64,000 nucleotides of DNA from Balanoglossus misakiensis. Taxonomy: Eukaryota > Animalia > Hemichordata. The stretch is taken from contig CM082581.2 in the NCBI GenBank assembly GCA_040954595.2, positions 8,144,059 to 8,208,058 on the forward strand. The letters are read 5' to 3'. The position numbers were made by a program, and so were the translations under genes. The notes under the pieces are model-generated. The model searched no databases. It was not told the origin of the DNA and worked only from the letters and a program-made list of their open reading frames with translations. Below are positions 343 through 60,442 of the stretch, one piece after another (position 1 is the stretch's first letter; each line of letters starts with the position of its first letter).

Positions 343-566
343 TGACGTAAATTGCCAACACGCTCTCTTTTCAAAGATATCCTGTGTAAGCCCTAACCGC
401 CACACACACACGGTACCGGTGTATGCAAAAGTTCCTGTCTATTCGCGGAATTGGCCGAAGTGAGCTCGGCTATTTTCGGCTCAAGTGGGGATTCCCTGCG
501 CCGGGTCTACCGTAACCATTGAATGTGTTTCGCGTCATCGACCGGACGTTGAGGACACAATATAAA
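343..566 (+). promoter_or_regulatory. Putative inducible promoter of the cytokine-like gene
   Basis: CRE-like TGACGTAA 343-350, GAS-like TTCGCGGAA 442-450, consensus kB site GGGGATTCCC 487-496, half-CRE CGTCA 533-537 and TATAAA 561-566, all upstream of ATG 687. Motifs are seen directly; function is inferred. Confidence 0.6.
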
Positions 567-686
567 GAGCGCTTGTTCACTGGTGAAAGTAACAGAATTA
601 CTAGCAAGCAAGCAAGAACGATCGAACACATCGCAATAGTCCTGCAACCAGAAAACTTCTTCACGACAACTTACCCACGAGAAAAA

Positions 687-2959
687 ATGACAACTTCAAG
701 GAAAATCTACAATTTTGCTGAAATCGGTTAGTTGCAAATAATGTCTGATTATAATCAACTTTGCTCTCAATTTTTTCCCTCTTCGTCGTGGAAATTCTGG
801 TTTGCACTATTTCTTATTATTTTCCAGCCTAACGATAACATAATCTTTCTTCTCCAACAGCGGTTGCAGTGGCCTTAATGTTGGCAACGTTTATCAATGG
901 AGCACCAACTGTTGCCGCCCCAAGTGAAGACACGGTGGCAGATTCCTACACAACTTTGTACCAGAAGACAGTCGCTTTCTATTCGGAACATCAAGAAATC
1001 TACAAAAAATTTGTAAGTATAGTGATCTCATCACTCAGCCGATTACATAATGTGGTTTTAAAAATAGCTGATTTTTTCATTACCGCATAATTAATTGTTG
1101 GATCCGGGAAATACGGGCTGGATTTAGGCTTATAGGTTCTCTTGTATTTATGTTTCAATGTAGTATTTTATTCCACTCTGGACCCGCTCTGATTCAACAA
1201 CATGTGTGTATGTCTGCACAGTTGAGAAACTGGATCACGCGACCGTGTAATGAGGCCACGGACCACGTTGACTGACCCAAATCATAATATTATCCGAGTA
1301 CACAACATGTGGTTGTCCGCTCCCGCGGCTATTCCACTCAGTAGCAGGTTAAAGGCCAAACAAGCGAGACTATTAAATACGCGCGCTGAAGCCAACTTCG
1401 CTTATATTATGAAACACTGTACAGTTTGCATTTACTTGTACATGTATTCATGTTACGGAGATCTGTTGGTGAAGCCGGAAAAAACTTCAAAGGTGTTTGA
1501 TTTTTTCACTTAAAAGAAGCTCCAAATAATGTCACATTTTACACTGAGGGTCCATGAGTTGTTGCGCACTTTACGGAAATCCAGACGTGCAAACTTAAAC
1601 ATTGGGCTTGTTCTGTGGTGTGAAGTCAAGGAGGAAGTCAATTTAGTATTTACTCGCTGTCAGTGGTCGCGAGGAGACACGCCCAGGCACTTTGATACCC
1701 CGTGAGGCCTTGTAGATACACATACGTTCGAATGTTCGGTTGATTTGTCATCAATTTGCCATTTGTGAAAAAGTACACCCGCACGAAACCCAAAAGTGCG
1801 TGGTGATGACGCGATAGTCAACCGCCTTTACAATGAGGAAATCACAGAGCTATTTTTAGCCCAGACTAATACTTAAATTGTCTCCTCCTTTTTTGGTGTT
1901 TACAGAAAAGCATCCGCCTTGACAACGAAGACATCATGGACGATATCCACAGTTTCAATTTCGAAGGTTTGCCAACTCCAGTCTCAAGATTCTTGGCATT
2001 TCGTATGGAGGTAGGCATACCCTGTTCTTTGAACACTTCCATGAACCAAAGACCGAACATTACAAACAGCAACGTCATTTCCTTGAAAGACCCTAAACCG
2101 TTCCCTAGAGCAATACATGCATGCAGCGCATACCGCTTATCAAGGATATGGATGTTCGATTGAAAGCGCGCCCTCTGGTGGCCTCTACGCCGCACCCTGG
2201 TTCCGAATCGTAATACTTCGTAATACTAATAGTACTTCCTCCATTGACTTTCTCTTTAAAACATCTTTTCTTCATTCAACCAACAGGAGAAAGATTTACT
2301 GGTTCTGCACAGAGACAACTTCCAGGCATTCCTGTCCTTTGTCCAGATTATGTACATGGAAGAGTTGGATCACGAAGCTGAGGGTCTTTCAGATCCCTTC
2401 CACGAGGAGTTCCAGGAAATCCGTCATCATCTGAACATCGTCATCAATAATCTCAATTCATTGGTGAGTACACTTACAAACACAATTATTTTGCCATGTT
2501 TATTATTGGTAAATTTACGTCTTGGCGGGTGGTATATGTTTTCTCTATTCAGCAACAGTAAATGACACGTGTGGTTGTATTACTGAGGTCAGCGGCATAC
2601 TGTTTATACGTCCAAAAAAACTTGTGAACTTATATGAAAAAGGTGAAATGATGATGACGATGGAGGTGGTGGTTGTGATTATAGGCGATAGTAGGAGTGA
2701 TGATTATATGATAAAAAAAAATTCTTGCACAATGCAGAATGATACTGATAGTTGTGTTTTCTTTGACTTTGCTCCGCAGCTGCACGCTTTGGGGTACCCA
2801 GACAGTGTTGACACCAGCGAAGACCCTGCCGGTGCTAGCATGCTGAATTCTGTCCACATCCGCGACATCAGACACGTCAAAGTTCTCTACGAGCTCTCCA
2901 ACTACCTGCCCAGTGCAAGGCAACATTTCGAACATCTTGGCAAGAGCTCGACCATCTAA
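687..2959 (+). CDS. Secreted 217-aa protein, putative long-chain four-helix cytokine (IL-6/CNTF-like)
   Basis: Exons 687-726, 861-1012, 1906-2010, 2287-2463, 2780-2959; all introns GT-AG, phases 1,0,0,0, giving an open frame to TAA. N-terminal hydrophobic signal (IAVAVALMLATFING-AP). Four amphipathic segments; the last, HVKVLYELSNYL, resembles remembered CNTF helix D (LKVLQELSQW). The gene model is well supported; the family call is inference. Confidence 0.7.
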
Positions 2960-3822
2960 AGAAAACTGGTGACTTGTCTAGATTTTGTTGGTTCAAGACC
3001 GTACAATTCTGGGTGTTATACATCTACATCTATAATTTTTCTTTGTTCCTCGCCGGTAATGGCCCGAGTATGGTATGTAGAAAAAAAATCAACAGCAACA
3101 TGCGGTTTGTATGCTTCGTTCAACATTCTCATTGCGCAAACAAAATGCAAAAAAATACAATTTTAGAATCATTTTCATCATTCATCCTGGAAAAAAAAAT
3201 AGTTTACAAGTGTACAAAATAACTATCATGTTGCTGGTTGGTTGATATTCTCGTGTGACAGTCATGTGATTGTCACATGAATCTTTGATTCGATCTGGCA
3301 ATATTTGTCAGGTTGTGTCACTGTCGTCAATGTTTGCTTGACATTAATGTAGGGATTACAATCCCATATTAGTCACTTACACACACTAGAACAGAGAAAT
3401 GAACGAATACAAAAAGTAGCTTGATAGTGAATATATTTCACATTTGTGGGTTTATTGAAAATAATACTTGTTAACCAGAACATGTTTATTAATACTTATT
3501 GAAGTTATCGACACTGAAATAGCCAATTTTCAGATCATTTTGAAAATTTATTTGTATGTTTTTACACAAAGACTGTCAGTACTACTACACTTTATCACTG
3601 GAGTCAGTGTTTTCGATTTCATTTACACATTTTAATGTATTGTTGTTGCCTTTCAGTACTATCATTAGGTTTAAGGGACTTATTATTCAGTAATAGAAGT
3701 GCAGTTTTTTCATAAATAATTTTCTCGGACAATTATTGAAGTGTAATATTTATAAATAAGTTGATTTTCCGACTGGTTCTTGCCACTTTTGAAATGTTCC
3801 CGTGCTGTTTGATGAGGTACTA

Positions 3823-4073
3823 TTATTTATTGTGTCATTTTTTGAAAATAATTTTAACAGCCAATTTGGCTTATTTATTGATCTTTTTGGGAGACAAAAG
3901 ATATGTATCATAAAATACGAAATTTTGGCTTGAACATTTACAATACTTCCAAAAGGGCAATATTTATTGTAATATTTATTGATGGATAACAATATGTCTT
4001 TTTTCATAAATTATTGTGGTTACTATTTATGTACACAGATTGTAAATGGTTTGTCATTCGCTCGGAGAATAAA
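3823..4073 (+). promoter_or_regulatory. AU-rich element cluster and poly(A) signal in the presumed 3' UTR of the cytokine-like gene
   Basis: TTATTTATT at 3823-3831 and 3871-3879, TATTTATT twice in 3961-3980, further ATTTA pentamers, and AATAAA at 4068-4073. Confidence 0.5.
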
Positions 4074-4627
4074 TTACCAGAATACATATTTTTAAAATGC
4101 GTTTCTATCCACAATGCTCTTGTGTTGCTTGTGATCCTGAGCGATCAAAGCCCGGGGTCAAATAATTGAGCATACGGGTCACGGCCATTAAAGGACACAG
4201 CATCATGTGCCTATGGTCGTCTTTTAGCCTATTCAAATCGCGGCCAAAGACTCCAAAGACTTTGACGCAGCCGCGACACATGCAGACGACTATATTTTGC
4301 CATCACCATCATCGAATACCACGACGAAATTACTATCTGTATGATTTCTTCCAAACCAGAACGCAACATTAGCCGTAGGCTAGGCGGCCTCTACGTTCAG
4401 CTTTGCCACATGAGGGCGCTTTTGTTCAACAGTCGTTGAACTTCCGGTCGTTTTTGGAGAGAGGAGGTGACTTAGTGGAGTGGCCATAATCTGAGGACTT
4501 GGCGTTCGCCTGAAACTTTGAAGTCATGTTCGTCTTTAGCCAAGCTTTCACTTGCCTATAAAGCAGGTAGTACCCGAAGACTTTATTATTTCCTGTTTTA
4601 TTTTGTTGAAATAGTCAACGTTTCATC

Positions 4628-7600
4628 ATGCAGGCTCAAGCAAACGGCTCCCAGTACGGGTCGCATGATGTCATCTCAGCACATCCGGTCCCTGGCTCTA
4701 CTGGTGGCCATGGGAAATCCACCCCACTGCCAAACAAAATACAGCTAGCTGCCAGATTTGACCCAAGTTCAGACAGCAGTGATTTCTCAACAGACACCAC
4801 CAGCAGCCTGTCATCGGATTCAGATGATGATTCGCGTGAGGCGAGTTTGAGAAGGCCAGGACAGGAACAACAACAATCCCAGCCTTTGCATCATTATCAC
4901 CACCACCATCATCAACAACAACATGAACCATGGTTCCAAAAGCAAGTTTATCAACCTCAGGTTAAAGAGAAAGTACAGCAGAAGCATCTCAGTGTAACCG
5001 AACACAAGGAACATCCTATGCAAACCGATGTTCGAAGGTTTAATGATGGTCACGGATATAACCTATATTCAGAATCCAAACGTTCCAGAGATGGGGTACA
5101 ACTTCTGCCTCCAGTTGCATTCCAGCAAGAAACAAACGGAAAGCCGGCTCCCGGTGGTTATCCATACGCTCAGCCAGTGGGGCAGAAAGGAGAGTCTGGA
5201 ACCATGAAAACATATAACTATGGTTCCATACGAACACAGAGTCCCACATACGGTGGGTATCTGGAAGAGGAAGATGACAAGGTGCAGGATGGAGACCTTA
5301 TAATGCGCAAAAAAGGAATCAGGAGTGAAGACAGGCCAGCAGTGGAAACTGGGCTACAGTACGGCATTCCATTTCCAGGTAAATGTATGAGCGACTTGCA
5401 ATCCCGTCAGATGCCCTCTGACCCCGAGACAGGTATCGCTGATAGTTACAGCCAGGGGTATCCTAGCGTTAGCCAAGGCAGGGATGACACAAGTGTGGAC
5501 AAGGAGCTGTCTGAGCATAGGAGTTTGATTTCAGAGGCAGATACCGGTGACGTTTCGTCTGTGTCTTCAGATTTAAGTGGCGTATCAGGGCTAAGGAGTG
5601 AGAAATCTTCTCGGCACAGAGGTAGGGTTTTCAAGGCAAATGTCATTATGTATATATATACTAGTATCAGGCAAGCTACCCTATGGACATTTTCCATCTG
5701 AATATTACCCACCAATCAGTTAGGAAAGGGTTCAAAATAGAGTTATGATAAGTTTTCACTGTATTGTGTTTAATTTTGACAGGAATTGGCAGAGGCAACT
5801 TCGGTGCCATAAAAAGCAGTGTTGCCCACCTGCAGGTTGGCAACAGCGACACAGTTCCCAGATCTTCCTCTGATACAACAATGACGAACGCCAACAGGGG
5901 AACTGCGAGGCAGGACTCCCAAGACAGCCCGACTGGCGGAAGTAACTCCTCAGAAAACTTCTGCAGGAACAAGTGGCACGGAAAATCCGACTCGGAAGGC
6001 AATCCTCACGGGCAAGGCGGCTACACCTACAGAGGCAAATTCCGGTCAAGGCGCGGGGTGGGCGGCCATCATCACCACCACCACAAAAGCCGGGCGCACG
6101 GAGGGAAGAAGTTCCATCCTAGCAAACACCTCTCCAGGGAAGACAAGTGGACGACTGGTGCGGATGTGGGTAAACCGTCACCGATTAAAACCAAGGCTCC
6201 CGGAGTTGGTGGCCAAGAGTTAATGGACTCTGACCCTGAAACAAAGAAGAAACCCCAGATGTTACAGATGAATGAGAAAGAGTTGCTGCGAACGGAATAT
6301 GATTGGCAGAAGCATAAGATTGAGAGAAAAGTGAAGATGGTAGGTTTAGCACCCATGATGAACTTACAGTTGTTGGTAATGTCAAACAAACCACTATTGT
6401 AGTAGTTTTGTATTGATAAAAATGATTCAAAGAAAGTATTCAGGAAGAAAGTTAACATATTCTATACCGACAAAGTCTTGTTGTTTCATTACAGGTTCTT
6501 AATGGTTTGTCAGAAAACAAAATGTCTGATGCTGTCCATGAGATAGAAAAGATTCTGAACACTGGTAAGAAATATCAGGTCATGTTTTGAATCTAACCGA
6601 GCAGGCTTATATGCAGTTGTCTTTTTGGAACCTAGTATCACCTAACTGATTGGGCATACTTCCCCATATTCAACCATGCTTAATAACTTGCTACTTGTTT
6701 TTCTACTGACAGGAGTTGCAGAGCTAGCCAAGTTTCCGTGGCCCAAACATCTGTTCATTGCGTTGGATGTGATAATCAGCTATGGTGTTGAGGACTCAAC
6801 TGCTCACGATACAGTCTGTATTTTAATACAGCACTTGGAAGGCAAGTCTTCCCATTGGTAGAATAAAACGATCTGTTGCTGTTTTTTTGTTGAGTTGTGA
6901 ATTTCGACTGATTGTACAATGGTAGAAAAGATGGTAAATTGTTTTTCCTGTAATTCTTTGCCATAAAACTAGGTCTTCATGCTGAGGGGTTTGACCAACA
7001 GATCAGCCAGGTTCTCTGCAAGAAAATGGGAGAGTATATCAAGGTACAGTTATTTCTGCCTTCTGTGCAACTTTATGTTGCGAGTGTACCATCTTTGGAA
7101 AAAGGTTCACGTTATTTGTGTGTAAGGGCTAATCAGTTATGTCTAAAAAGATTAAACGTAATTTGCATCATAAACAGTTGACTCACAGAGTGAATGTTTG
7201 CATTTGTCTTTTCTCAGCCATCTGGGGCCAAGGATCAGCAGTTACTGTCGTACAGTAGACTGCTCGGTAAGTTGTATTTGATGGCTGTGATGAGTACATC
7301 GGGTTTGAAGAAACAAGTGTCAGCGTGTGTGCACAGCAGCATTGAAAAGTGGATCAGCTTCAACAAACAGGTATGTGTCACATAGTTATATTATTATATG
7401 TGCAGAGTCATTGAGAATGGGGTGATTGTTCCACACAGCATTGCGGGGCTCATAATTTACAAGTACTCTGCCCTGTGTAACATGAAGTCTAAACTAAATT
7501 CAATTAGCTTCAGGTGTCATATACACAGTGTAGCAACGCTTTTCTGTTCTGTTGATCCTTCAGGGCCAGAACCCACCTCCAGATGTTCTCGAGACGTACA

Positions 7601-10392
7601 CAAACTGTCTGACAGCACTGCTGAAGGTGATTGGAAGTTACTTGGACAGGTGTGAAGAGAAACTGGCTGGCCAATATGTGGATATGATCCGGGAAAGAAT
7701 CCTGACTGAAACTAATGTACCCAGGTAGGAAGAGAGTAAAATGACAAACGTGTGTGGTTTGTATAGGAGTACATGGAAAGTAAATATTTTAATGTACTAC
7801 AGTGACAATTTTTCCTTGTTAAAATTGAGCTGAAGGTTCGTTTTCCAGGGCTGAAGTTCTGTAGAAGTTACTTATAGAAAAGAAAAAACTGCTGGAAAAA
7901 TTTTAATTAAATATTGATATATTTTACTTAGGACAGTAAGAGAGAAGCTGTTAGACTTTTTACTGCTCCGGGCAGTTGGTTGGGACAATCCAGTGTTGAA
8001 GACACATCAAAGTGTGGAGAATATAGCGTTATCTGACACTGGGGTGAATACTGACAGTGTAGACACTGAGGATACGAGTGTTCAAGTTCAAAGCATTGAG
8101 AATCCTGTAGATGTCAAGGATGTTGGTGTTCAAGTTAACGACATTGAGAATGCTATTGTTGAAGGTCAAGGACAGTGTAAGTGTAATAGTATGTCAGCTT
8201 TCAATGGTAAATGATCACTTTCTTAGGAAGACTTTCACTGCTTTTCTTGGCTTTGTCATGTAAATTAACCACATGCAAAAGTGATAGAAGTTACGCGTGA
8301 GGAAAATTATTGCAGTAAAAATAGTTACTCTATTTTTATTCACAGTCACAGCTCCTGACTGTTGTGGGCACCATGCTAACAATGAGACACTGGAACACAC
8401 TGTTCCAGAAACAGAAAAGCCAGTTGCTGCTGCGTCCAGTCCTTACGGTAATGTACGCAGCATGCTGACAGAGCTAAATCTCGAAGAGCAATTCGACAAA
8501 TTTGTGGAGAATGGAATACGGGTAAGAATATCGCTGCCACACTTTCACTCCTGTTTAGATCCAGCTGCTCACTTGTTACCACTTGCTGTAATTTTTCGGC
8601 ATTTGAGGCATTTACATGACACAGACTGCATTTTTTTTAATTCCGCAGGATTCAGTTCTTATGGCCGATTGGAACGATCTGAAATCACTCCTGAAAGAGT
8701 GTGGTTTTCTTCCAGGGACTATTCTAGAAATCCAGATTTACTTGAGAAACAAAAGTAAGTGATTAAACAGCTAAACAAATTCTACCCCCCCCCCCCCCTC
8801 CCCATTTCCCAAATCCTTGAACTCTCTTTGCAGTTCTTGAAAATTAAAAAGTCGGTGTGGCCTTCCATAATAAACATAAGCTACTTGTCAATATGTGATG
8901 CATCCCTCCTCTTTGACCAGGACAAAGTGATAACTACCAGAAATTGGATTCAGAGATTATGTCAGCCCCAGGCAAGGACAGAAAGAAGGTGGTTCCACTA
9001 TCCACACAGCAGCCAGGTGTAAACGCAGCTGTGAACCTGGCAATGGCCGCAAAATGTCTCCCGACTTCTATCATGATCAGTGGTAGACACGTTCTGAGTA
9101 GTAATGGAGGTGACAATATCCAGGGTAATGTCACTTCAGCTCAATGTCTCAGTGCAAAGGAAACATGCGCAGCTGTTGGTATTACTGCAGAGAAGGAGGC
9201 TGTTGTGTCAGAATCAGCCGAACATGATGATGAAAATTGGGGCAGATGTGAAGAAGAGGAGGTGGAAAATGATGATGTTGTGTGCAGTGCTGTTGTTAAT
9301 GATGAAGATGATGATGGTGGTGGTGGTGGTGACAACAACGTTGATACTGTTGATCTGTGTGGCGATGGTACTTATGATGCTTGTGTTGATGCTGCTGATG
9401 CCGATGCCAATGATGATGATGCTGATGATGATGGTAGTGATGATGATAATATCGAAAGAAGCTCTGGTACCTATGTTGGTGAGATCAGTGGTGGTTGTGA
9501 TCGTGCACCCGAGGACCAAGCTGCCTTCAACAGTGAAGTGTTAGCAAACATGTCTGAAGAAGCAAGAAAACTGATCCAGAGAGACGCCACGCTCAGAAAG
9601 CAGATGTTCCATCAGCAGCCTCCAGAAGGCAAGCCGCCAGGTGGAAACCTTAAAACTGGAACAAAATCTGCAGTGGTTACTGAGGAAAATCCATCCACTA
9701 CTACAGAGAGACACAAGGGGCGTAACATCAGTGAGTGGAATTATCAATCTTTACCTGTAAGAGGTCACCAGAGTGTGGATGCTGTGAGATCACACTCGTC
9801 TGATGGGGAGAGTAAGACAGACAAGAACGACACCAAGGCGGGATATCTCAAGTATGACTTGTCGCCAAGAGCGATGAAGAAAATGCAGTCACGTCAGCGA
9901 GACACAGTTGAAAGTCAGTCAGATTCTTTGCATGGTTATGGCAAGCATGATAAAGTCACTACCAAATATGCAACTCGTCACCCTGGTAAAGCAAGCTCTA
10001 CGAAAACATTTCACGCCACTGAAAACCAGAAGAAGTCCCCCGAAAAGCAGCCAAGACAGGTAGATGGTGTCACGGGCCATCATTCACCACCAAAATCTAA
10101 GAAATCAAACCGTCTCCGCGGCTGCGAGATTTGCGGCAGCAACAGCCACACCCTGAGGGCATGTCCGGTTTTCTGCAAATACGCCCCAAGCTCTCGCAAA
10201 CACAAGGGTGAAAATCCCGAAGAGGAATCGGAAAGCGTTGCCACGCCCCTTGACAGCAGCGAAGGAACCTCAAGCGGGGATGACACGATGGCCACTGCCA
10301 ACTTTGGCGTGCGCAGGGTTTGCAGTGTGTGTTCCAAGCCCGGACATTCCACGTTTCACTGTCCAAAGAAGTTCAACAACTTTTTTCTTTAG
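4628..10392 (+). CDS. ~1377-aa protein with MIF4G domain, SAM-like domain and two CCHC zinc knuckles (putative RNA/translation regulator)
   Basis: Exons 4628-5621, 5783-6339, 6495-6564, 6713-6841, 6973-7043, 7218-7370, 7564-7724, 7932-8176, 8346(or 8352)-8521, 8649-8754, 8921-10392; phases consistent, 4134 nt total. MIF4G-type motifs: RKVKMVLNGLSENK, SRLLGKLY, NCLTALLKVIGSYLD, REKLLDFLLLRAVGW. SAM-like: VRSMLTELNLEEQFDKFVENGI...LKECGFLPG. Knuckles: CEICGSNSHTLRAC and CSVCSKPGHSTFHC. AATAAA at 11094. Confidence 0.75.
9295..9450 (+). repeat. GAT/GGT-rich trinucleotide low-complexity tract (poly-Asp/Gly) in the last exon of the MIF4G gene
   Basis: Runs of gatgat and ggtggt encoding NDEDDDGGGG and DDDADDDGSDDD. 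Confidence 0.7.
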
Positions 10393-11998
10393 CTTGTCAT
10401 GCCATATATCGAAGGTAGTTTTTGACTTTCATTAACTCCTTTTTGAGTGCAAGTACCACACACTTTCCCTGTGACCCACCGCATCACCTGACTGTTGGTT
10501 TGATTTGGGGGTTTAAAAAAATCCCAGACACACTTTGTATGATAGTTACGACAGCTTGCATTCACGCAAATTTGAACCAGTTATCTCAACACATCGAGAA
10601 AACTGGTTTTTGGAAGGTTAAATAAACTGGTTGTCACGTGATGGTTGTGTAAACAGTGGTCACACTGAAATAACATAAAATGGAGGCCGTCTTTGCGCTG
10701 TTGGGATTTCTGATGTGAAGTTGCATGATAATCGGTGGTTGTTGGATTTGTTCTTGTTAGTTGTTAATTAATCTGTCTACGTTATCCTGAACACCCCTGG
10801 ATGAATAGAAATTCACAGATTCAGTCTGTGGGATTTTGGTATAGAAGAAACTGCCATACTGCTGGAAGGATTGTCAACACATCTTTGACAGAAAATCTTG
10901 TTTTGCCCCAGTGAAAAGTATTTTGTTGTGTTAAATGTATTACGGTATAGTCATTTACCTAGAATTCAAGCATACATAATCATTAATGTTCCAAGCATAC
11001 TTTGATACAATTTTCATTTCATAAACCTTTGTTTACACCAACTCTGTTAGAATACATTTCAGTTATGTTACATTTACCTTTTTTGGAACTGTTAATAAAA
11101 GTTAAGACAACTTAATGCATTGTAAGGCTATTTTTGTTCAAATAAGACACTGCAAAACAATTTAGGTTTGGTGCACTGATGAAACATTGTTGCAAAGAAA
11201 TTTAGTATGTCATCTCCACCAGAAATGAAGATGTATTTTTAATTATTATACCCAGAGGCAGTGTGGGTTAACACATTCCAAACCCTTATGTGTAGCAAAC
11301 ATCCATCGTATGCTATCTAACAGTCCATAAGAAATTAGTAAACCACAATATAATATTTAAGATTTTATTTCAAAATACAAATATTAAATATATATTCAAT
11401 AAATAGAAATTAAAAGAAAATTGAAAATGAAATTCTGACATACATAACAAAAAAATTGTCAGCCAAATAATGTGTGGCTCTTTGGTTTCATAATTAAGAA
11501 TAACATTCTGATTAAAATAGCAAACTGATAAGCTCCTTCCTTGGCAAAGTTCAGGAGTACATATTCATGGCAGTTGTCTCAGATCAGGTGACAATATTTC
11601 TCAAAGACTCATCACTAGAGGGCAATGTTCATCCCAGCTTGACGCACTCTCTGTATAAACGGACGGAGCTTCTCAATAGCAAAAGCACTGGTTCATAAGT
11701 TTGTCCTTCACTTTTCAATAGTGCAGGCAATCTGTGGGAGACGTCATGGAGCTTTCTGTAATTGAGAATGAACAAGAAGATGATGAGAATATGACGCATT
11801 TGACTGTATGGTCGGGTGTAGCTGTGGGACTTCAGCATTTGCAAGGACGGTGGTGGAAAATGTTTGAATACTTTGACAGTGAGGCTTTCATTAGAAGAAT
11901 TTCCAATTCAGTCCAGGATGTACCAAGTACCAATACAGACACAGACAGATGAAAATTTGATGAAAATTTAATATGGAATGACATAAAAAATAACTTAC

Positions 11999-23702: not shown

Positions 23703-26700
23703 ATGGCGGCGACGACATCTGGAACTAGTCCCGACCAAGATGTTATCGAGAGCGTTGTGAATTACGTAAAATCAGCGGGACTTTTTGATCAGTTTCGACG
23801 AGACTGCCTGAATGATGTTGATACAAAGGTTTGTGCTCCGTTTTGTGGTTTGGTTGTTATCTATTTTGCATCGTATCATTTTTACCAGAACAGTACACAC
23901 AGATTCATTAGGCTGTCTGGACACCTGGTTATCTCGAAATCGAGTATGGGCAGCATCTACATAGGTGTAAACTGCATTGTGGCCGTGGAGAGACGGAACG
24001 TGTCTGTGTTTTGAAACATCGCTTGCGCTGGTGGAAGCACGCCCCCTACGATTGAATGGCACGGTGCGAACAAAATACTTTGAACTTGAACGTGAAGAGA
24101 CTGTTCATCTTCGACAACAAAGTCAATGTAGCTTGAATTCCAACTATGTTCAACAATGCAAGCCAGTTCGAGTGAACTTGGTGAGTGAGTTTAACATAAA
24201 AAATCTTCTACTGCAGTTCTTTATTGAAATTATTTTTAAATCACAGCCAGCTTATCAGAACTTACGGCAAAGAGTGGAAGGATATGTTTCCACCTTTCTG
24301 TCTCAGCACACCTGGTCTCCCAACCTTAACAAGAACCAGCTACGTGACAGTCTCAGAAGACAGATAAACCAGTAAGTATCATTTTTGTATATTAAAGTGT
24401 CTTTTGGGAAAACATAAAGGCAACAATTTTGAAAATGCAGTGTTCTAGGCCCTTGACGCTGTGACGCTTTTTATGCTCAGCTGTCAACTGTGACTGTTGC
24501 TGCTTTTTCCGTACGCTGCTGGTCGACACCCTCAGAGCAGTCGAATATCACGTCACATATCAGAACATACTCATGTGGAATGTCTATCTTTGTCTCTTGT
24601 AGGTCAGAAATGCTTTCTATGGGTGTAGAAAGAATCGTAGAGCAGGTTGTAGAACCCAAAATTCAACACATCTTGAGACCACAGATTGAAAAGGCACTCC
24701 AGGAGTACACCGAAAAGAAGGAAAGGGAGGCACCTCCAGTGCCAACAACATCTGATGATGGCAAAGCTGCCTTGCCACCTTTACCTCCACATACCACAGG
24801 TAAAAAGAATTGCATTATCTAAATATAATATAATCTAAATATCATCTAAATGTAACTTGCATAATGATGTTAAATAATATTTTCATCATAGGCACTCCGC
24901 CAAGCACCAAGACCAAGGTCAAAGGTGTGTCAGAGAAGTTGCCGCCAGATGTTGTTTCCAGGGTGAAAACAACTACAAGTGGCGAGCAGGCAAAGAAACA
25001 GTCGACAGATAGCGGGGGACCGTCTGAGATCAAGAGTAAGTTGAAAGATGGCAGTGCTGCTAAACCGAGCAAGGATGTCAAGAAAGGCACGGGGAAGGTA
25101 CAGGAGAAATCAAAAACAGGAACCGCCAAAGGTGTATTGCCGAAAACTGGTGAAGCTAAGAAATCGGAACAGGGATCTGTCAAGGGAAAAGTGGGAGAGT
25201 CGGATAAAGGCGGAAGTGGCAAGGGAGAATCCCACTTGAAGACAAAAACGTCAGAGTCGGGCGGGAAGCAGGCGGAGAAGTTGGAGAAACCCAGGGTGGG
25301 AGACGTGTCCCACAAAGCCAAGGGTGAGCCCGGCACAAGACCGGCAGACAAGCAGAAGGCATCCGTCAGTGATAAACCAGGGAGTCGCAAACCGGATCAG
25401 AAGGGAGCTCCTGTGAAAGATGATAAGATGAAGGATAAAGCAGAAGGAAAAGGAAGCGTTAAAGAAGATAGGCTGAAGTCAGATAAAACGGAAAGCAGTA
25501 AGACAGAGCATGTAAAATCCACCGAGAAGTCTGAAAAAGCGAAATCAGTCAAACCTAAGGATGGCTCTGAGAAGAGTCTGGTTGTGACTAAAAAGAAAAC
25601 TGACAAAGTGCTGAAGACACTCAAGGATGATAAGGCAAAATCAAGCAAGTCGGAGGTTTCCTCTGAGAAGAAAGGTGGTGCTGAGGTCAAGCCAAAGAGC
25701 TCTACTGAAGGAAAAACTGCCAAAGACGGTGGGAAAAAAGAAAAGCCGAAAGATGTTAGCAAAGACAAGAAGGCACTCCCTAGCAAGGATAAGGAGGGGG
25801 CTGGTAAGCCAAAAGACCCGGCAAAAGGCAAGTCTGATGTGAAAAAGAAAAGTGAAATCAAACCGAAGGCATCCGAAACGAAACAGTCCGAGACAAAACA
25901 GAAAACAAGTGATAAAAGAGATGAGACTGCAAAAGGAACAAGTGAGAAGAATGAAGATGGCGTGAAAGGGAAGTCGTCAGCTGCTTCTGTCAAGAAAGAA
26001 ACCAAGAAAGACATAAAGAAAGAGACCTCTGACGTGAAACCGGACAAGTCTAAAGACAGCAAAAGTCAGCAGTCTTTCAGAGAAAGCGTTTCGCAGAAAG
26101 CAGAGGAAACACACAAACCTGAAAAGGTGGCATCAGGACTTGAACAAAAGGACACAAGTTCCGAAATGCAGACCGCACCACCAGCTGAATTAAAAGTCAC
26201 GACCCCGGGCGTGGAAAAGCCAGAGTTGTTGAAAACTGAGGATGAGAAAAGACAGGATGGCAAGAAAGTGGCGTCACAATGTGAAAAGGGCGAAGAAGTC
26301 CCAACAGTCGGGAAGAAAAGAGAATTGGAACATCACGATGGTGACTTCTCAGACGATGATAATATGTCTGATGTCACTGTGAGTTCAGTGCATACGAGCG
26401 ACCTTTCTTCCTTTGAAGATGCAATCAGTTCTGTTTCATCAGTGTCATCCACTAGTAGCGATGAAATGTCATCCGATGAAAAAGATGGTAACTATACATT
26501 TTTTATGATCTCAATCCTTGGGGTCCATGCATTGCCCCTGTTTCACACACTATCTGTACATTCAACTCTACCCCTATATATTTCTCGTAGTGTAGAAATA
26601 AAAAGACGGTACTCTCTTAGTAAATAATGTAACTTAACTTTAGTTTTAAACACAAATCATGTTATTAAATCTAACCACCAAAGCTTTAAACTTGAACTTG

Positions 26701-28776
26701 AAAATCTCAACAGCAAACATAACCAGCAAGTTTCAATTTGATTTGTTGCCCTTACAGACACAGATAGATCATTAAACAGAAGCAGAGACTCTCCCTTTGG
26801 AAGCATCAGTGGTGACTCTGAGAAGAGTGGGCTGACTAAACGGAGGCCATCAACCAAAGCCCTGGCTCTCAACCGTTACTATAGCGACAGTGAAGATGAG
26901 GAGGCCCGTGAAGAGAGAAGAAAGAAAGCGGTAAGTTGAAAGCCACCAATTTTTTGGGGTGAGCACTTGCTTGTGCAGTAGTCCACCCTTTATCTTAGAC
27001 AACAATAAAGATGGTTGTGAGAGGGTTATTGTCAGTCTGCCCAGAGAATAAGAAATGTTACCATTCCATCAGCTTGAGTTTGATGTGAATCTTACATAGT
27101 AGGAACACTGCATTCACAGGCAAAGGAGAAGGAAGAACGAGCAGCCAGGAGGCAGCAGATAAAGGAAGACATGAGTGAAAAATTGAAGCAGTGTGAAGAA
27201 GAAAAGAAGAAGAAGAGAGAGGATAAGAAGAAAGTCAAACAGGAAGCCAAAGAGAGAGAAGGTATGTTAGCTTGTGTCCCTCACCTTTCTGTGAAAAAAA
27301 AATACAATATTACTACAAAGGTTGTATGTAACAAACTACTGTACAAAACAATAGGATTATAATTTGATTGTCTTTCATAGAACCATATTTGTGTTTTGTC
27401 TTGCAGAGGCTGAAAAGTCTGGCAGAAGGGGTCGCACCAAGGAGCAGAAGAAAGAGGAAAAGGTCCAAGCCAAGAGAGAACAGAAGGTGCTGGAGAAGAG
27501 AATGGCTCTGCGGAGACAGCGCACGCTGAACAAGAAATATCTCTCGGAGGATTTCACGTCCTTGTTCTCCCAGAAGGAGCCCACCTTCATCACAGGAGAC
27601 GCTGAGTCCAGTGATAAGCAGACGTCTGATTCGAGCGAAAAACAGACATCTGACAGCCCTGCGGCTACTGCTCCTGAAGACTTTGAAGTTCCAGCCGTGA
27701 GGAAGCGGAGTTCTTCGAAAGAATCGGAAGAAAGCGTTACGGCTAAGGCGTTTTTCGTGTCCCATGTACCGGATGTGGGGCCGTCGTATGAGCAGACGTT
27801 CATAGCCAAGGCCATGGAGTTAGGGAATTACAGTTGTGGACTGCGTCGCTCTGGAAGGAGGTCCTGTAATTCGACGGACGCTCCTTCGGGTGAACCGGGG
27901 GAGCAGGGTCTCCAGCTTCCTCCGACGAAGCGAGGTCGTCGAACAAGCAGCGCTTCGGGGTCGTCCTCCGATCACTCTTCGAGTAAAGGACAGCTGCTGG
28001 ACAGCCAAGGTGGCGGTAAAGATAAGGCAGCTTCAGAGAAAAAGGAAGAGAGTCATGGGAGAGAGGCGAAGGAATCTGCGGCGGATGCGGAGCCTGCCGA
28101 GTTGGCGTCCCCGCCCACACCGACCCAAGACGAGCCGTCGTTCCTCGAGGGGGCGAAAGAGGAGGCTGTTGTGGCAACTGCGGGCGATTCCCCGATCCCA
28201 ATCTACAGCCTCCCTTCTCACACGGACCAGCAGCAGTCGCCTCTGAAGTCCATTCCGCTGGCTGCCTCTGATACCTCGAGCAAGGACAGTTTCGCAGGAA
28301 AAAGCACGGAAGTAGAACCGCATGATACGAGGGGGCGCGCGTCTCGGTTGGAAGACCAAGGAAAATGGGACGAACCGTCCAAGTCGGACGATCGTCCCGC
28401 GCGACATCACAGAGAAAGACGCGGTCAGTCTTCGCACCATGAGGGCCAGTTTTACGAGAGGGACGGCAGCAAATCGCCCGGGGCCAGTCGCGACATCCGC
28501 CCGAGAAGGCAGTCCAGCAGAGAACACTACAAACCCATGTCCGACCAGTTTGACTACTACAGCGGCAAGAAACCCCAGCACACCAAAGAGGAGGAACCCA
28601 GACGGAGATACTCCTCCCACTCGCGGGAGAGCCGATCGCGCAACTCGCCCCCACCGAGGGAGAGCAGGTTGCGAAACTCGCCCCCTCCCCGGGAAAGCAG
28701 ATCTCGCAAGAGACACGCATCACCACCGAAAGATCACAGAGCATCAAAATATAGAGGCTATTCTTACAGGCGATGA
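23703..28776 (+). CDS. BOD1L1: BOD1-like protein (biorientation of chromosomes 1-like; N-terminal Shg1/BOD1 domain), 1242 aa
   Basis: Exons 23703-23828, 24247-24371, 24603-24799, 24892-26487, 26758-26930, 27120-27261, 27407-28776 (3729 nt, in phase). Motifs KSAGLFDQFRRDCLNDVDTKPAYQNLRQRVE, LNKNQLRDSLR, SDVTVSSVHTSDLSSFE, YYSDSEDE...AKEKEER, KVLEKRMALRRQR. Confidence 0.9.
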
Positions 28777-31308: not shown

Positions 31309-34300
31309 TCAGTCATCTGGTATGATGGTTATCGAGAGACGTTTGTTTGGCCATGTAAAATGCTTTGGTAGCTCTATCTGTAGACGGAAGAGGAGAAACA
31401 AAATTTAGAGATGAATCCTTCCTAAGTTCCAAAAAAATACTAGTAGTCAGTTCTTGTTTATTGGGAAACAGCAGTTTTGCTGTATATAATATATGCCCAA
31501 TAAGACAATCAAATTTTCCTTCAAGACATCATTCATTTTTCTCAGAGCAAGGAGGATGAAAACAATGGAACCTACTTCACTTGGATTTGTGAGTACATCT
31601 AAGTCTTCTACAACAGAGTCTAGGTCATCATCAGTGATGAGTATCTAGAATGAAATGAAATAAAACATGATCTGTTACTGGTGTTAGGAAGTTAAACAGG
31701 TTCAATGTTATATTATAGAAGTATGCTCATGTACACATATTCAACAAGGTGCCAAGACTTTAGCTCTTCGAGGGAAATTGCTATTTTCCCCAGTCATTTG
31801 AACTTCACCTATTATCTTATGAATGCTGACTTACTTGTAACCATGGTCCGTGCGCAGCATAGCGATGCGTTTCATCGACAATGGACCCTTCCACATGCGG
31901 GGACACTAACGTTACCGCCACATCTCCGGTGATGCTTTTGAAAGTAAAATGGCGACCGTGTTTGAGTCTGCCCCTTAAATCCAGACGAGAAAACAGAAAC
32001 TGGATTAGTCCAATTGAACAATACATTAAGTACACTTGCCATTGAGTTGTCTTGAACAATTCTCATCATATTCCTAAATCTGTAAACGTTTGCAATTGAC
32101 CTACTTGAGTGCCAAGGGTAAGAGAGCCCCAGCTTCCATGTTGAACTTTAGCTTGACTCCGTCCACTGATCTTGTCCTGATCAGCTCCATTGAACTGCCT
32201 TCAATGTCACTTTCTGAACTGCCTCCCAGCGATGGCTTCCTATTGTCCAACATATCTTGGTTGCTAAGAAACCAACAGAGAAATGATAAGCATCACAATA
32301 CATGTAATTCACTTTTTAAATAAAATGAATAAGTTACTAACAAAGAATATATGTCTACAGAACAAAAAATTCACAAATTCAATGGCATTTTAAAAAAGTG
32401 AAAAAATGGCAGCAATTCCACTTACCTATCTCGCTCGTGCCTGATACTGGACGTTTGACTTTGCTGTATTGAAGGTAACACTGCTTTATCTTGCCCTAAG
32501 CCCCTTTGCAATGTGGCTTTAATTTGTTCTGATTCTGAAACACACATGGAGAAATCATCAGATCCAGTCATATGGACCAAACACCAAATAAAAACACTCA
32601 TCTGTGACATCCTATATGTGATTTCTCCATATGGTTAGTCTCACTGAGTTTTCATAATGCTGTATTACTTTATGTGGCTGTCATTTTGGAAAATTCAAAG
32701 AATTCAAAAATGTCACTGTACAATACTTCCTCTGTACAAAACTCACCATATCTCGAAATATGGGGTGCATTCTGCTCAGTTCCACTGCTTTCGCCAGAAA
32801 AATCATCCCATTCTTCCCACGAACACTTTGCGCTGACGCCGCTCAGGTTGGAGCCATCGGTCTCGATCCCACGATCCACCATTTCTTGTAAGTGTGGATC
32901 GATGTCAAAGATCGACTCCCCTCGCCTCATGTCAGTGACCAGCCATGGACCACCAGCACTGTAATGACGCAAGAGAAAATTTGCTGTGATGTAGTGAGTG
33001 CCTAGTCAACGTGCGTGATGATTTAGTGTTTTGATCTTGACATATGCATTGATTTTGTTCAAGTATTCCATTTTCAAAGATGACCACAAAACTAACTTTC
33101 ATGGCTACTTTAGCTCTCTACTTTCTCTCGAACCTCTTGACATTCTGATCACCTACCCAGGTGTTTTACGAATCAAATCTAAAACTGCAGGACCATTCCA
33201 GTGTTGAGCAGCCTGCAGCTCTTCGTTGCAAACTCCTAAAATCTGCAAGACAGAACAGAGTAGTATGTGTGGTTGGCGCAGGTCTTTGGAAATTTCGCAG
33301 TAGAAATTAATACAGTTTAATATCTTGCAGCCATTATGAATGTGACGAGTGAAATATGTTGCTGATGTCTCAAATACCAGGTGTAAATTTTACCTGAACA
33401 AATTGCACGGTGCCAAACTGTGTGACTATTGGGGGAAGCTGCGGGTCTTCTGCCATCAGCATGTGATTGACGCGGGATTCGCTGTTGTCCAGTGGGTTGT
33501 GCCACGACACGTGATCTCCGCTACAGAACACATTCTCTGAAAAGTTACAAGGGTTGGGGTTACCACGATACATTATGACCTCCTCATAGCTAATTAGAAA
33601 TAAGAAAAGAAGTTTTGATCTGCGCTGAACATGTAATTTAACATCCAAATGATTTACCTGACTGGAACACATATCGTGCCAATCCCTGCATCAGCTCTGC
33701 TGGCCACGTCGGCGGGGCAGTTTCTGTTGGCTCCCTTTTTAAACGAAATGTCAATTCAAAACCAAAACCACTGGGCCCTTCACCTCCAGTGAATCTATGT
33801 GTAGAGAATAAAATCAAATCCAATGAGTATATTATTATTATTATGTTACCATCTCAGGAAAAGAAATAGCATTTTCTTTCTTCAGTAACACTCATATCGA
33901 AGACTTGAAATATACTATACTTACTCATGTACTCTTCCGTCGCCATGGAGATCAGTTAGTCCAAAACTCACATAATGCCAGTGAGGAAGAATGCCCCTTT
34001 CTGGGACTCCAGGATTAGCATACATACTAATGTAATCTAGCGGGTCAGGACCACCTAACCTGCAACAGAAAACATGAAAACAATACGTACATTACATGTT
34101 TGTCATGGTAGCTCCATCCTCCATGGTCAGATGTTGTAGAAAGTGAGTCCTTGGGGAAACACCTGGTATAATTATAAAAGCGGTACAGCATGTAAACAGT
34201 GTTACGTGTATGAAAAGTATGTTTACTTGAACAAGCAACATCCTTGTGTCAGCATCATGTCAATTGGGTCCCTGTACACTCCACTAAATTTGTTTCTTGC

Positions 34301-35903: not shown

Positions 35904-39530
<3,627 letters not shown>

Positions 39531-44369: not shown

Positions 44370-46879
44370 TCAGTAATTCTCAGCCATCATGAGAATCACC
44401 AGTGAGGACCAGCCCGTGAACGGATGTGACCCCTGACCCCGGCCGGTTGTATCGTTGTATTGCTCCCACACGTAGCCCGAGCGGTCGTACTCTCGCACCA
44501 TGTTGGTGATGATGCTAGTCCTGAGTTCTGAGTAAATTTCGCCGGCCTGGCTCCGATACGGCCCCTCCGTGTTGGCGTAGTGGTGCAGTGCCCTCACAGT
44601 CAGGTAGTTCATGTTGATCCAGATCTGGCCTCGCCAATATGGCGGGTCGTGCTCTGTGTTGTACTTGGCGTACAGCGGGTCTGATTTGGACAGCGATCGC
44701 AGGCCGTACCTGGTCCACAGCAGTTTGGGATCTCGGATGTCTGTCAGGATTTTCCCCAGTTTTTCCGACGACGGGTCGATCACTTGTAAGAGGAAAGGAA
44801 ACAGGCTAACATAGCCCAGTGCACTGACGTGTTTGTACGCGGGTCCGTTTTTGGATTTGATGGCGCGCACCATTGGGGGTTTGGGGACGTTTTGCGGTTT
44901 TCGCTGCCCTCGGGGCTGCGGTACGGGTGTTGGTGATGGCGGTCGTTCCAGCATTACGTGATCTGAGTGGTTGCCATAGTCACTGTACTGTTTCCCTTTG
45001 GCAGACCAGTGCAGTTTATCGAGGAGCGCATTATCCGTCAAAACTTCGTGCGTCTGCTGATACTGCTGATGCGGCTCTCCGATGGTCTTCGCGATGTCGG
45101 TCATGACTCCGGAAGCGAGAGCGATCCAACACCGCAGATCGACGTGCCGTTCGTCGTCCGAAGGGTGCGAGGCGCGCGGATAGTCATCCAAACCAGACGT
45201 CAGCGTTTTGGGGTTCAATTCTTTGTCGGTAGTGGCATCTCTGCCCCGCCACCTGTACGACGTCGGAACGTTCCCGAGCTGAGTCGTATTGAACCAGTTG
45301 AACCAGACTTTCAATCTCGGGTACATGCGCTTCAGGAAAGCCTGGTCGCTTTCATCGGTGCTCTTGACAAGCTCCTTCATCAGGGACTGAATCGGCAGGA
45401 ACAGCGTCGGCGGGTTGGCGTTCTCGTTGTACTGCACGACGAACTCGGTCGGCACTTTGGCGCGCGCCTCGTTTCCCAGGATCTGCTCTCGCGGGATCCA
45501 CCCGTCCACGTTCATCAGATCGATCCAGTGGCCGATGATCTCTTTGCTGATGCCGGGATCCCACTTGCTGATTAACAGGTTGTGAAACCCCTCGTCCCAC
45601 AGAAACCCGCGGGGGAAGAAGGAGCGAGACGGCACGGCCGTGTACAGCGGCGCGTCCCAGTACTCGACGGGCTCGTCGTTATACCGTGACTTCACGATGG
45701 ACTTCCCGTAGAAGTAACCGATCCCACCCACCAGGTTACTCAGCGTGGCCTTGGCAAAGTTCATGTCTTTCTCTTTGAAACCCTTCTTCTTCAGGTTGAA
45801 TATCTTTTCGAATTTTTCGTCAAAATTTTGAGAGTGATGCGTCAGCAGCTTTGTGAACTCTGGTCCAGCCAGGACTGTCTGCCGAGCAGCGTGGCTGCCC
45901 GACTCGAAGACAATGTTCACCTCAAAGGGCAGCGCGACAGTAATTTGGTGCACCAGGAGATTCGGCTCGTAGTCGTGAAACTGACTCTGAGACAAAATAT
46001 CCCCCACAAGTCCGACCATATTCTTGTTCTGCCCGAAGGGATAGTACTTCATACTCCGGTGAACCACTTCCTTGATGATGTGAATACTCGGCGTGTAGGT
46101 CCTCAAGAAGTTGGACTTCTTTGTGTTCTTGGCCCTCGGGAATTTAATTGTGAAGTCGCCCAGCTCTTTTGTATTTCCTTCAATAGTTGTCATCCGAGTG
46201 CCCTCCACTATTGGCTCCATCTCTCCCTGGCCATCAGTTGCAGCATAAAACATGATCGACACAATAGTTTTGTTTGCAGCTTTATTCTGAAATTCAAAAT
46301 AAAGGGGAAAAAAAAAGAAAAATACAAGAGAGTTAATCATTAAAATTCTCCAAAAGACTGGCCTGTGTATAAATAAAAATATTATACACCTTGTATGTAT
46401 GGATTGTCGCATTAATGTTTGATGGTCTCTCAACCCCACTGTGTTATTATTTTAAGGAAGTGAAAGGTTATATTTACTAATTATTAAATACATCTATGTG
46501 TGGAGTTCTGATTGGCTACCCAATCAGACAAGGAAGGAACATTTCAGATAAAGTGTCCCACTACCAGTTTTAATATTTAACAGTCAGACAGTTACAAAAT
46601 TATACATTGAATGACTAACAAAAACTGCTAGGAGGGACCATGACAATTATTGTCTCCACTCAGAATTGTTTCTGTGTGGTTTCCATAACCAAATAGACGT
46701 ACATTTTACCACAGACTATTAATGTTTTTATACAGTTTTATTGGGCGATTATGATTCCACAGCAGGTGTTTCTGTAAACAGATAAAGCTAGCCTCAACGT
46801 GTAATGATGGTTTCCATATTGTACGTTTGTTTAGATCATAAGAATTGTTTTATTCATTCATTCATTCATTCATTCATTC

Positions 46880-46927
<48 letters not shown>

Positions 46928-47728
46928 TACCTTGGCTTTTCCACTGATGCGGACAGTCCAATCACCACCATGCTTCCCCCCTGGTCGTTTGACGAATTCT
47001 GTCATCAACGTGAAATTTTTGTCGACAATCTCTTGACTACCGAAGTTTATGCCGTCGTGCCTAAGCCAGCCGTATTTTGGCAACTTGTCCGACTGTTCAC
47101 ACGTGTGCCGGATGGGCAAAGTCCTCTCGCGCGTGAACTGGGTGAACCACATCAAGCCGGTCACCATACTTTCCGGGGTCCGTGTCTTCATCCCCCAATA
47201 CACGCCGGGTCGGTACGTCCCCCAGTACCGTTCCGGGGACATGTTGGCCGCCTCCTCTGGGGCGATGACTCGCGGCAGGTCAAGTGGGGAGTAGACCCGC
47301 GAGGCGAGAACGTGTCTGTACCAAAAATAGCCCACCGGAACGCACCCTATTAGCACTATCAAAACAAAGGTGCGAAACCCGATCGGCGGCGAATTTCCCG
47401 GCTTCAGGTACTTTCCCACGTCGATTCCATCTGGTTGCCGGTCGCCGACACTCTCGTCGCTCTCACGACGCACAGCCCGCCGATTTCTCACCATGTCGAC
47501 GTTCTGATCAAAGATATCATCACTGAAATCGGCAGCAGGAGGTATATTTCTGTCGACCTCGTCTTGGTCACTTTCGCCCGTCGTAATGCCGCTGTTTTCC
47601 TCGTCCACGAGATCTAGTAGATCGCCATCTTGGGTACACAGCGATCCGGCTTCTGATTGGAGGAAATCGTGCGGCTGCTCGCCGTCACGATCGTCCGTAT
47701 TCATGCTAATATCATCTGAATCAGACAT
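44370..47728 (-). CDS. MOGS: Mannosyl-oligosaccharide glucosidase (ER glucosidase I, GH63), 904 aa
   Basis: Two exons, 47728-46931 and 46286-44370, joined by a phase-0 intron. Type II TM segment FVLIVLIGCVPVGYFWY; motifs WGTYRPGVYWGMKTR, LYTAVPSRSFFPRGFLWDEGFH, TLTSGLDDYPRA, ERHVDLRCW, YWRGQIWINMNY, PFTGWS. Confidence 0.96.
46852..46926. repeat. Compound tetranucleotide microsatellite (ATTC)n(AATC)n in the MOGS intron
   Basis: Direct reading of attcattc...ttcaatcaatc; it begins right at the minus-strand splice donor (46930). Confidence 0.9.
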
Positions 47729-53700: not shown

Positions 53701-54644
53701 ATAACTCCTACTCTAGTGGTTGTATAGGGAATTTGCTCTTTAGTAATATTTCTTTAACAGCCTCCCCCCTTCTCTCGAGTACTTAGTTGAGCATAGAAAA
53801 CGACGGTATTGTATCAAACTACGGTAATGACTTGCAATTGATGTACATGTATATGTAAACCAATTGAATAGTTTAAAACAACGTTTTCTTTAACGTTTGT
53901 CGTCGCGTGTTTCACGATTTATATAGAAAAAAGGTACGCTATATTAATGTTCAGTTCTTCAATGGGAATTCTCCATGGCCGATTCCTTAGCTTGACAAGG
54001 TGACCTTTATTCACACCCGCCCAGGTGTGACCCCAGGTCATAGCTGGACACAATAGCATACCTGAGCCAATCCACTTATGGAGTGTGAAATTAAACTCGT
54101 CCAGTCTGGCGCTCGCACCGTTCAATGGTCCTGCAGTCATCAACACCTGGCCTCAGCCCTTCAGACGGTTATTACATGTAACTGACTTCCCTCCCAGAAG
54201 GCAAACTGTTTTACCGCCAATTCACACCATCATTTCACGGTAATGAAATGCCCCAAGACTGGGTGACTTTCAATTTTTCTTTTCAATCACTTTGAGACGA
54301 GGTGTCAATTTAATGAGATGGCTGACTTATTGTGCATAGCCCAGACTGTTGTTAATTTCGGTGTCTTCTCTTTGCTTTGTCATCTGCACGTTTTCAACCT
54401 ATCCCCTTCTCCCCTCTCTGTCTTGTATTTCTCTCTCCGCCTCTCTCTGTCTCTCTCTCTAAGCCTCTGTCTGTCTGTCTGTCTGCCAGTTTTTCTCTGC
54501 ACAGTATGTGAAATAAACTAAATTGTGTGAAATGTATACAAATATAAAAGATTGGGATACGCATTCTAATCACCCCTCACTTTTAGACGTGAAAGAACAA
54601 AATATATCATGATGGAGTCTATAAATAAATACATTAATTAATGA

Positions 54645-54647
54645 AAA

Positions 54648-54694
<47 letters not shown>
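54645..54694. repeat. (AAAT)n microsatellite
   Basis: About 12 consecutive aaat units. Confidence 0.92.
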
Positions 54695-60411: not shown

Positions 60412-60442
60412 CAAACAAACAAACAAACAAACAAACAAACAA
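60412..60442. repeat. (CAAA)n microsatellite
   Basis: About 7 consecutive caaa units. Confidence 0.85.

Follow-up and report, generated by a model that had tools for sequence, protein, structure and literature searches.

The genes of vertebrate interleukin-6 (IL-6), IL-11, G-CSF and growth hormone (GH) share intron phases 1,0,0,0. In the available sections of a 2026 preprint, IL-6 is extended only to lampreys and hagfish (PMC13081863). The fold class of these proteins, the long-chain class I helical cytokines, is already known from invertebrates, with insect Unpaired as one precedent and, as the other, a GH-like helical cytokine of amphioxus, which was described together with further divergent amphioxus genes (PMC9010856). 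Here we analyzed a 64,000-nucleotide stretch of the acorn worm Balanoglossus misakiensis (GenBank assembly GCA_040954595.2, contig CM082581.2, positions 8,144,059–8,208,058, forward strand), hereafter the window, in which a split gene at bases 687–2959 had been predicted from the letters alone to encode an IL-6/CNTF-type cytokine. The gene is real, and its product, a predicted long-chain class I helical cytokine, is probably a ligand of a gp130/Domeless-type receptor and belongs to an apparently undescribed family found in acorn worms and sea stars.

Splicing of the five plus-strand exons (Table 1) gave a 654-nt frame of 217 amino acids plus TAA, whose product contains neither cysteine nor tryptophan. 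This is the same five-exon, cysteine-free protein as described in the original prediction, and the claimed intron phases of 1,0,0,0 were confirmed on the spliced frame; the IL-6-like layout of five exons likewise agrees with the available sections of PMC13081863. The introns measure 134, 893, 276, and 316 nt, and all four have GT-AG ends and pyrimidine-rich acceptors. As reference for alignment, junction scoring and fold modeling we used P0001, an uncharacterized Ptychodera flava protein of 218 amino acids (XP_070541380.1). Aligned end-to-end, the window product and P0001 were identical in 126 of 218 columns (58%) with one gap, and all exons matched, with 5/13, 21/51, 26/35, 36/59, and 38/59 identities for exons 1 to 5, respectively. 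The predicted junction scored highest against P0001 at all four introns, as the best of 3, 11, 25, and 22 alternatives, respectively, these being donor/acceptor pairs at most 60 nt away that keep the frame. The exon junctions are supported by homology and splice signals, and the ATG at base 687 is the sole ATG from the TATA box (561) to base 700. No second gene copy was found in the window, at whose left edge the gene lies: the family profile matched exons 2–5 only, with the next best match at E 0.74.

Based on sequence features, the N-terminus resembles a signal peptide, with basic residues at the start, a Kyte-Doolittle hydropathy maximum of 2.63 at residues 13–23 and then a G/AP cleavage site. 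Comparable leaders were seen throughout the family, in which Pro29 (P0001 numbering) is nearly invariant. The product is likely secreted via this putative signal peptide, and the predicted mature chain has 190 residues, a mass of approximately 22 kDa and an acidic isoelectric point (pI) of 5.0.

Homologues were collected in several searches. With exon 4 as sole query, one protein, P0001, was recovered among 26 candidates. A phmmer search of 1.84 billion representatives returned 8 proteins at E ≤ 0.001, two from Ptychodera, three from Glandiceps talaboti, two from Saccoglossus kowalevskii, and one from Asterias rubens, to which an A. amurensis cluster member was added. A profile search gave 7 matches among 3657 candidates, four of them new (Patiria miniata, Acanthaster planci, and two unnamed records), and a word-indexed search with P0001 found only P0001 itself among 420 candidates. 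The distribution found comprises three acorn worms, with 2–3 members each, and four named sea stars, with one member found per species; every named member is labeled 'uncharacterized'. In a 14-row tree, the window protein was paired with P0001 (support 92/97) inside the acorn-worm group, which was separated from the sea-star group at 100/100. Identity among the acorn-worm members close to the window protein ranged from 35 to 58%. The pairs P0003/P0004 (Glandiceps), P0001/P0006 (Ptychodera), and P0005/P0007 (Saccoglossus) suggest linked or tandem paralogues. P0005 and P0007, which carry consecutive accessions, are missing helix D, and P0006 is missing the leader; these are probably incomplete gene models.

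No description of the family was found in a literature search that lay outside most subscription journals, and six member identifiers (both Saccoglossus LOC numbers, one XP number, and the LOC numbers of Asterias rubens, Patiria and Acanthaster) returned 0 papers. The family is not described in the available parts of PMC1963337 and PMC4929537, and the two Saccoglossus genes (LOC100374483 and LOC100374329) are not named in the main text, or the one supplementary PDF, of a Saccoglossus poly(I:C) study as far as that source was available (PMC10210618). The claim of a possibly undescribed ligand stands for the family itself, apparently an undescribed group of ambulacrarian long-chain class I helical cytokines, but not in its broader form, since an invertebrate class I cytokine besides Unpaired has already been published (PMC9010856).

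The fold was modeled on P0001 with AlphaFold2, using an alignment of 16 rows that comprised 13 family proteins plus window exons 3–5, with no vertebrate rows and no templates. The model had a predicted local distance difference test score (pLDDT) of 81.7 and a predicted template modeling score (pTM) of 0.74. Its helices span residues 40–70, 101–130, 139–162, and 184–217, separated by AB, BC, and CD loops of 30, 8, and 21 residues, respectively. The model thus predicts four long helices in which the AB and CD loops are long and the BC loop short, the pattern of long-chain class I helical cytokines, which measure about 170–200 residues. Long-chain class I cytokines made up 42 of 42 among the Foldseek matches listed, and CNTF had the top template modeling (TM) score (8d74_D, 0.69/0.85, 2.6 Å). 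Realignment of the Foldseek matches with VIA-align gave Z-scores of 21.9 for CNTF (2.2 Å, 172/174 residues), 20.6 for IL-11, and 19.7 for CLCF1, followed by IL-27 (18.5), prolactin (18.1), G-CSF (18.0), LIF (17.8), and IL-6 (16.8). In a Foldseek-independent search of 48,161 chains, IL-11, CLCF1, and CNTF came first, with Z-scores of 20.3, 19.7, and 18.1, respectively; each of the best 15 rows was a long-chain class I cytokine, and no other protein scored above ferritin, at 8.9. On CNTF, IL-11 and CLCF1, 160–172 residues of the model were superposed at 2.0–2.6 Å, and identity to solved cytokines was low (5–17%). The original prediction of an up-up-down-down four-helix bundle is borne out by the P0001 model and by its matches to these three cytokines, and the AlphaFold and Foldseek check that it proposed, run here on P0001, returned a long-chain class I cytokine fold. 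A ferritin-like bundle was rejected (Z at most 8.9), as was a class II cytokine of the IFN/IL-10 type, a class with five or six helices and five exons in phases 0-0-0-0, given the phases of 1,0,0,0, the four main helices and IFN Z-scores of at most 12.7.

In the ESM Atlas, P0001 and the Patiria member lie near the IL6, Hormone_1, LIF, IL11 and CNTF clusters (0.93–0.95). Rank 1 for P0001 is an unnamed cluster of 114 proteins, mostly molluscan, with Pfam IL6 on 11%, and rank 10 is an unnamed cluster of 56 proteins, mostly arthropod. Such molluscan and arthropod clusters hint at long-chain helical cytokines throughout bilaterians.

A second line of evidence came from profile searches. When a 12-member family profile was run against 177,635 PDB sequences, human CNTF took ranks 1–2 (E 0.0033 and 0.0044), and the next match had an E-value of 0.097. 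HMMER aligned the family helices B–D with CNTF 68–178 with two single-residue gaps, reproducing two of the three by-eye matches to CNTF of the original prediction, at the start and end of helix C and in helix D; the third, in the AB loop, falls outside this alignment. The Pfam CNTF family (PF01110) was matched by 2 of the 12 members (E up to 1), the best being P0004 with 19.7 bits and E 6e-4. No member matched the GH/prolactin family (Pfam PF00103, 0/12; both the window protein and P0001 are without cysteine) or Pfam Unpaired, and phmmer with P0001 against the PDB gave unrelated matches only, at E 0.08 or worse. The sequence match to CNTF is weak, yet independent of the fold model.

Motifs on either side of the coding exons were also considered (Table 1). 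The NF-kB (kB) site and the cAMP response element (CRE)-like site occurred together in 0.15% of 2000 shuffles of bases 261–600, and kB matches across the window were at the level of chance (6 vs 4.3 expected). TATTTAT was observed 6 times vs a shuffle mean of 0.54, with 0 of 1000 shuffles reaching 6, and the cluster was the highest of 56 equal window bins (runner-up 2). STAT-like TTCNNNGAA sites are present but common throughout the window. A kB/CRE promoter and an AU-rich 3' untranslated region (UTR) are typical of inducible, short-lived vertebrate cytokine mRNAs; by analogy, the kB, CRE-like and TATA motifs together with the AU-rich cluster suggest an inducible gene.

We consider it probable that the gene encodes an infection- or injury-induced, secreted long-chain class I cytokine nearest to CNTF, CLCF1 and IL-11, which would signal by a gp130/Domeless-type receptor to JAK/STAT. 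Upon infection or injury, NF-kB- and CREB-type factors would turn on transcription, and the AU-rich elements would keep the mRNA short-lived. The leader would be cut after Gly27, and an acidic monomer of approximately 22 kDa would be released without disulfides. The bundle could then join two class I receptor chains, resulting in activation of JAK and of a STAT5/6-like STAT. According to the available sections of the literature, IL6R-like receptors as well as JAK have been reported in hemichordates, the STATs of invertebrates cluster with STAT5/6 (PMC13203501), and lamprey IL-6 signals via STAT5 (PMC13081863).

Several observations weigh against this reading. The predicted fold is that of P0001, which is 58% identical to the window protein, and window exons 3–5 served as alignment rows only; a single-sequence P0001 model was poor (pLDDT 41.8) and was left out of all fold-search results. 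Foldseek gave no match at E 0.001, and prolactin came first by E-value. Prolactin, G-CSF and LIF trail the best structural matches by just 2–4 Z units, so membership of the gp130 sub-group is likely rather than certain. In the sequence comparisons, an 8-member profile reached CNTF at E 0.72 only, the curated PF01110 cut-off of 22.7 bits was not reached (best 19.7), and Pfam found no cytokine family on window exons 2–5 or on P0001. The promoter shuffle test was designed after the motifs had been seen, and for plain ATTTA the excess was not clear (9 vs 5.3; 8.8% of shuffles had as many). The identified downstream neighbors lie outside the IL-6 block (TOMM7, ETV1-TAX1BP1) given in the available sections of PMC13081863, a comparison that covers the downstream side only, beyond three nearer genes, with 686 bases upstream of the gene in the window.

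The start of helix D also differs from that of CNTF. FXXK, the LIFR-binding motif of the gp130 cytokines CNTF, CLCF1, LIF, OSM and CT-1, is located there in CNTF (F152 and K155), according to the available sections of two sources (10.1101/2022.06.30.496838, PMC9601804). This motif is absent from the window protein, which has H-I-R-D at 184–187, and CNTF K155 aligned to Asp, Asn or Tyr in the family; the receptor contact at the helix D start must therefore differ from that of vertebrate CNTF and LIF. In the HMMER alignment, CNTF F152 corresponded to Ile185, in a column that is hydrophobic in 12/12 covering rows and Tyr or Phe in 5/6 sea-star-clade rows. A gap-free alignment placed F152 on His184, a variable position. 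The tryptophan that IL-6, IL-11 and IL-27 p28 carry as gp130-site-3 aromatic anchor at the helix D start is not found in the window protein. CNTF itself, or CNTF orthology by membership, was rejected based on the absent FXXK, the sub-cut-off Pfam score, the signal-peptide-like leader and the four introns.

The same fold would also suit an endocrine GH- or prolactin-like hormone that signals through a GHR/PRLR-type homodimer, in the manner of the published amphioxus GH-like protein (PMC9010856). The five-exon layout is common to GH and prolactin genes, prolactin chains lead the Foldseek E-values and reach a VIA-align Z-score of 18.1, and the nearest Atlas neighbors include Hormone_1 clusters, which rank first for the Patiria member. 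The prolactin fit is nevertheless below that of CNTF and IL-11 (TM score 0.60 vs 0.69, root-mean-square deviation 2.9 vs 2.2 Å), GH has a Z-score of 14.2, and the family profile found CNTF and neither GH nor prolactin. GH and prolactin have conserved disulfides, whereas the window protein is without cysteine, and the kB site and AU-rich cluster suit an inducible cytokine better than a hormone. Overall, we regard a hormone as unlikely.

It appears quite unlikely that the product is a class I cytokine with a mainly developmental, neurotrophic or regenerative role, or one that acts via another receptor such as CRLF3, instead of an immune JAK/STAT ligand. Arguing against such a role are the kB site close to the TATA box, the AU-rich 3' cluster and lamprey IL-6 genes of the same layout, whose induction by pathogen patterns and by injury is described in the available sections of PMC13081863. 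In its favor, CNTF and CLCF1, which match best, act as neurotrophic cytokines, conservation (35–58% among the close acorn-worm members) is above that usual for immune cytokines, FXXK is absent, and insects are reported to have CRLF3 as a conserved receptor for cytokines (PMC12409108, available sections). Developmental and immune roles are, however, not mutually exclusive. It is very improbable that the gene is a dead copy or one that is not expressed, or that it encodes a non-cytokine four-helix protein convergent on the fold. Although identity to any solved cytokine is only 5–17%, the 217-codon frame runs intact through five exons bounded by consensus splice sites and is 58% identical to an annotated gene of another species, and the Z-scores of 20–22 extend over almost whole cytokine chains, compared with 8.9 for the highest-scoring unrelated bundle. 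The fold and the gene layout indicate the same superfamily as do the leader and the weak sequence match.

More tentatively, the family and the vertebrate gp130 cytokines might share an ancestral gene, with sequence features of the CNTF/CLCF1/IL-11 branch kept, a possibility that we consider somewhat doubtful. [quoted passage not shown] The family provides testable candidates for the JAK/STAT ligand that published surveys call missing in these animals. With candidates now named in Ptychodera, Saccoglossus, Patiria and Asterias, the missing-ligand question becomes testable in the sister group of the chordates, and the family can serve as an outgroup to root the IL-6/CNTF/GH radiation.

Table 1. 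Features of the cytokine gene and its surroundings, with positions counted from the first base of the window.
Feature	Position	Strand	Remarks
Coding exon 1	687-726	+	40 nt; start codon and first half of predicted signal peptide; followed by phase-1 intron
Coding exon 2	861-1012	+	152 nt; remainder of predicted signal peptide, with cleavage likely after Gly27 (base 901), and the larger part of helix A
Coding exon 3	1906-2010	+	105 nt; end of helix A and long AB loop with conserved G-L-P motif
Coding exon 4	2287-2463	+	177 nt; helix B, short BC loop, most of helix C
Coding exon 5	2780-2959	+	180 nt including TAA; end of helix C, long CD loop, helix D
CRE-like site TGACGTAA	343-350	+	proximal promoter; putative function; in 5% of 2000 shuffles of bases 261-600
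Near-palindromic NF-kB consensus	487-496	both	about 65 nt 5' of TATA box; putative function; in 3% of 2000 shuffles
TATA box TATAAAG	561-567	+	motif match
Six TATTTAT AU-rich-element-like motifs	3747-4030	+	probable 3' UTR
Candidate polyadenylation signal AATAAA	4068-4073	+	sole plus-strand copy from stop codon to base 4600
Long open frame directly downstream of cytokine gene	4610-6402	+	no Pfam match
Long open frame directly downstream of cytokine gene	8288-10392	+	no Pfam match
Long open frame directly downstream of cytokine gene	11832-13133	-	no Pfam match
Spliced mitochondrial carrier gene	17270-20236	+	Pfam Mito_carr
Gene with COMPASS-Shg1 domain and long Lys/Glu/Ser-rich tail	23682-28776	+	Pfam
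SUFU exons	32670-33690	-	Pfam
Actin-family exon	38757-39182	+	Pfam
Glycosyl hydrolase family 63 gene (glucosidase I/MOGS-like)	44370-47731	-	mostly two long exons

Several neighboring genes were identified in the window. The mitochondrial carrier gene is presumably mitoferrin-like, and the COMPASS-Shg1 gene we take to be BOD1/BOD1L-like. The SUFU and actin-family exons are apparently divergently transcribed; human SUFU adjoins ACTR1A, and the arrangement would represent an old conserved pair. Within the open frames directly downstream of the cytokine gene, the frame 8917–10392 contains two zinc-knuckle-like motifs of the form CxxCxxxxHxxxxC, together with an Asp-rich stretch. For the region 47800–64000, Pfam was run on 62 of the 109 open frames of at least 55 amino acids and gave two sub-cut-off matches only; the region is probably intronic or intergenic.

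In comparison with known cytokine systems, the phases of 1,0,0,0 differ from the 0-0-0-0 of IFN genes, as given in the available part of a preprint (10.64898/2026.05.30.728932). CNTF (8d74_D, 1cnt; PF01110) is the closest structure, with a Z-score of 21.9 and 2.2 Å over 172 residues, and the sole significant-looking sequence match, while identity is approximately 14% and the window protein is without FXXK. Vertebrate CNTF has no signal peptide and no intron set like the leader and four introns of the window gene. CLCF1 (8d7h_D) follows with a Z-score of 19.7. IL-11 (4mhl, 8dpw, 8qy4) is alike in structure, with Z-scores of 20.0–20.6 at 2.0–2.4 Å, and, as is predicted for the window protein, it is secreted from a five-exon gene as a cysteine-free mature chain. 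IL-11 differs in that it has no sequence-level match to the family and is basic, whereas the window protein is acidic (pI 5.0) and has no tryptophan at the helix D start. IL-6 (1alu), including that of lamprey and hagfish, is alike in exon layout, and its kB/CRE promoter and AU-rich 3' UTR can be likened to those of the window gene; its structural score (Z 16.8) is below those of CNTF and IL-11, and the window protein contains neither cysteine nor the site-3 tryptophan. Prolactin and GH share the long-chain fold (Z-scores of 18.1 and 14.2, respectively), but the window protein is without their disulfides, superposes worse on them and has no profile match to them. No amphioxus protein was among the homologues found, and the amphioxus GH-like cytokine is compared here by its description. 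Drosophila Unpaired 1–3, the ligands of Domeless, are secreted invertebrate four-helix JAK/STAT ligands, according to the available sections of PMC9601804 and PMC13203501, and are insect-restricted in that literature, whereas all members found of the window gene's family come from acorn worms or sea stars.
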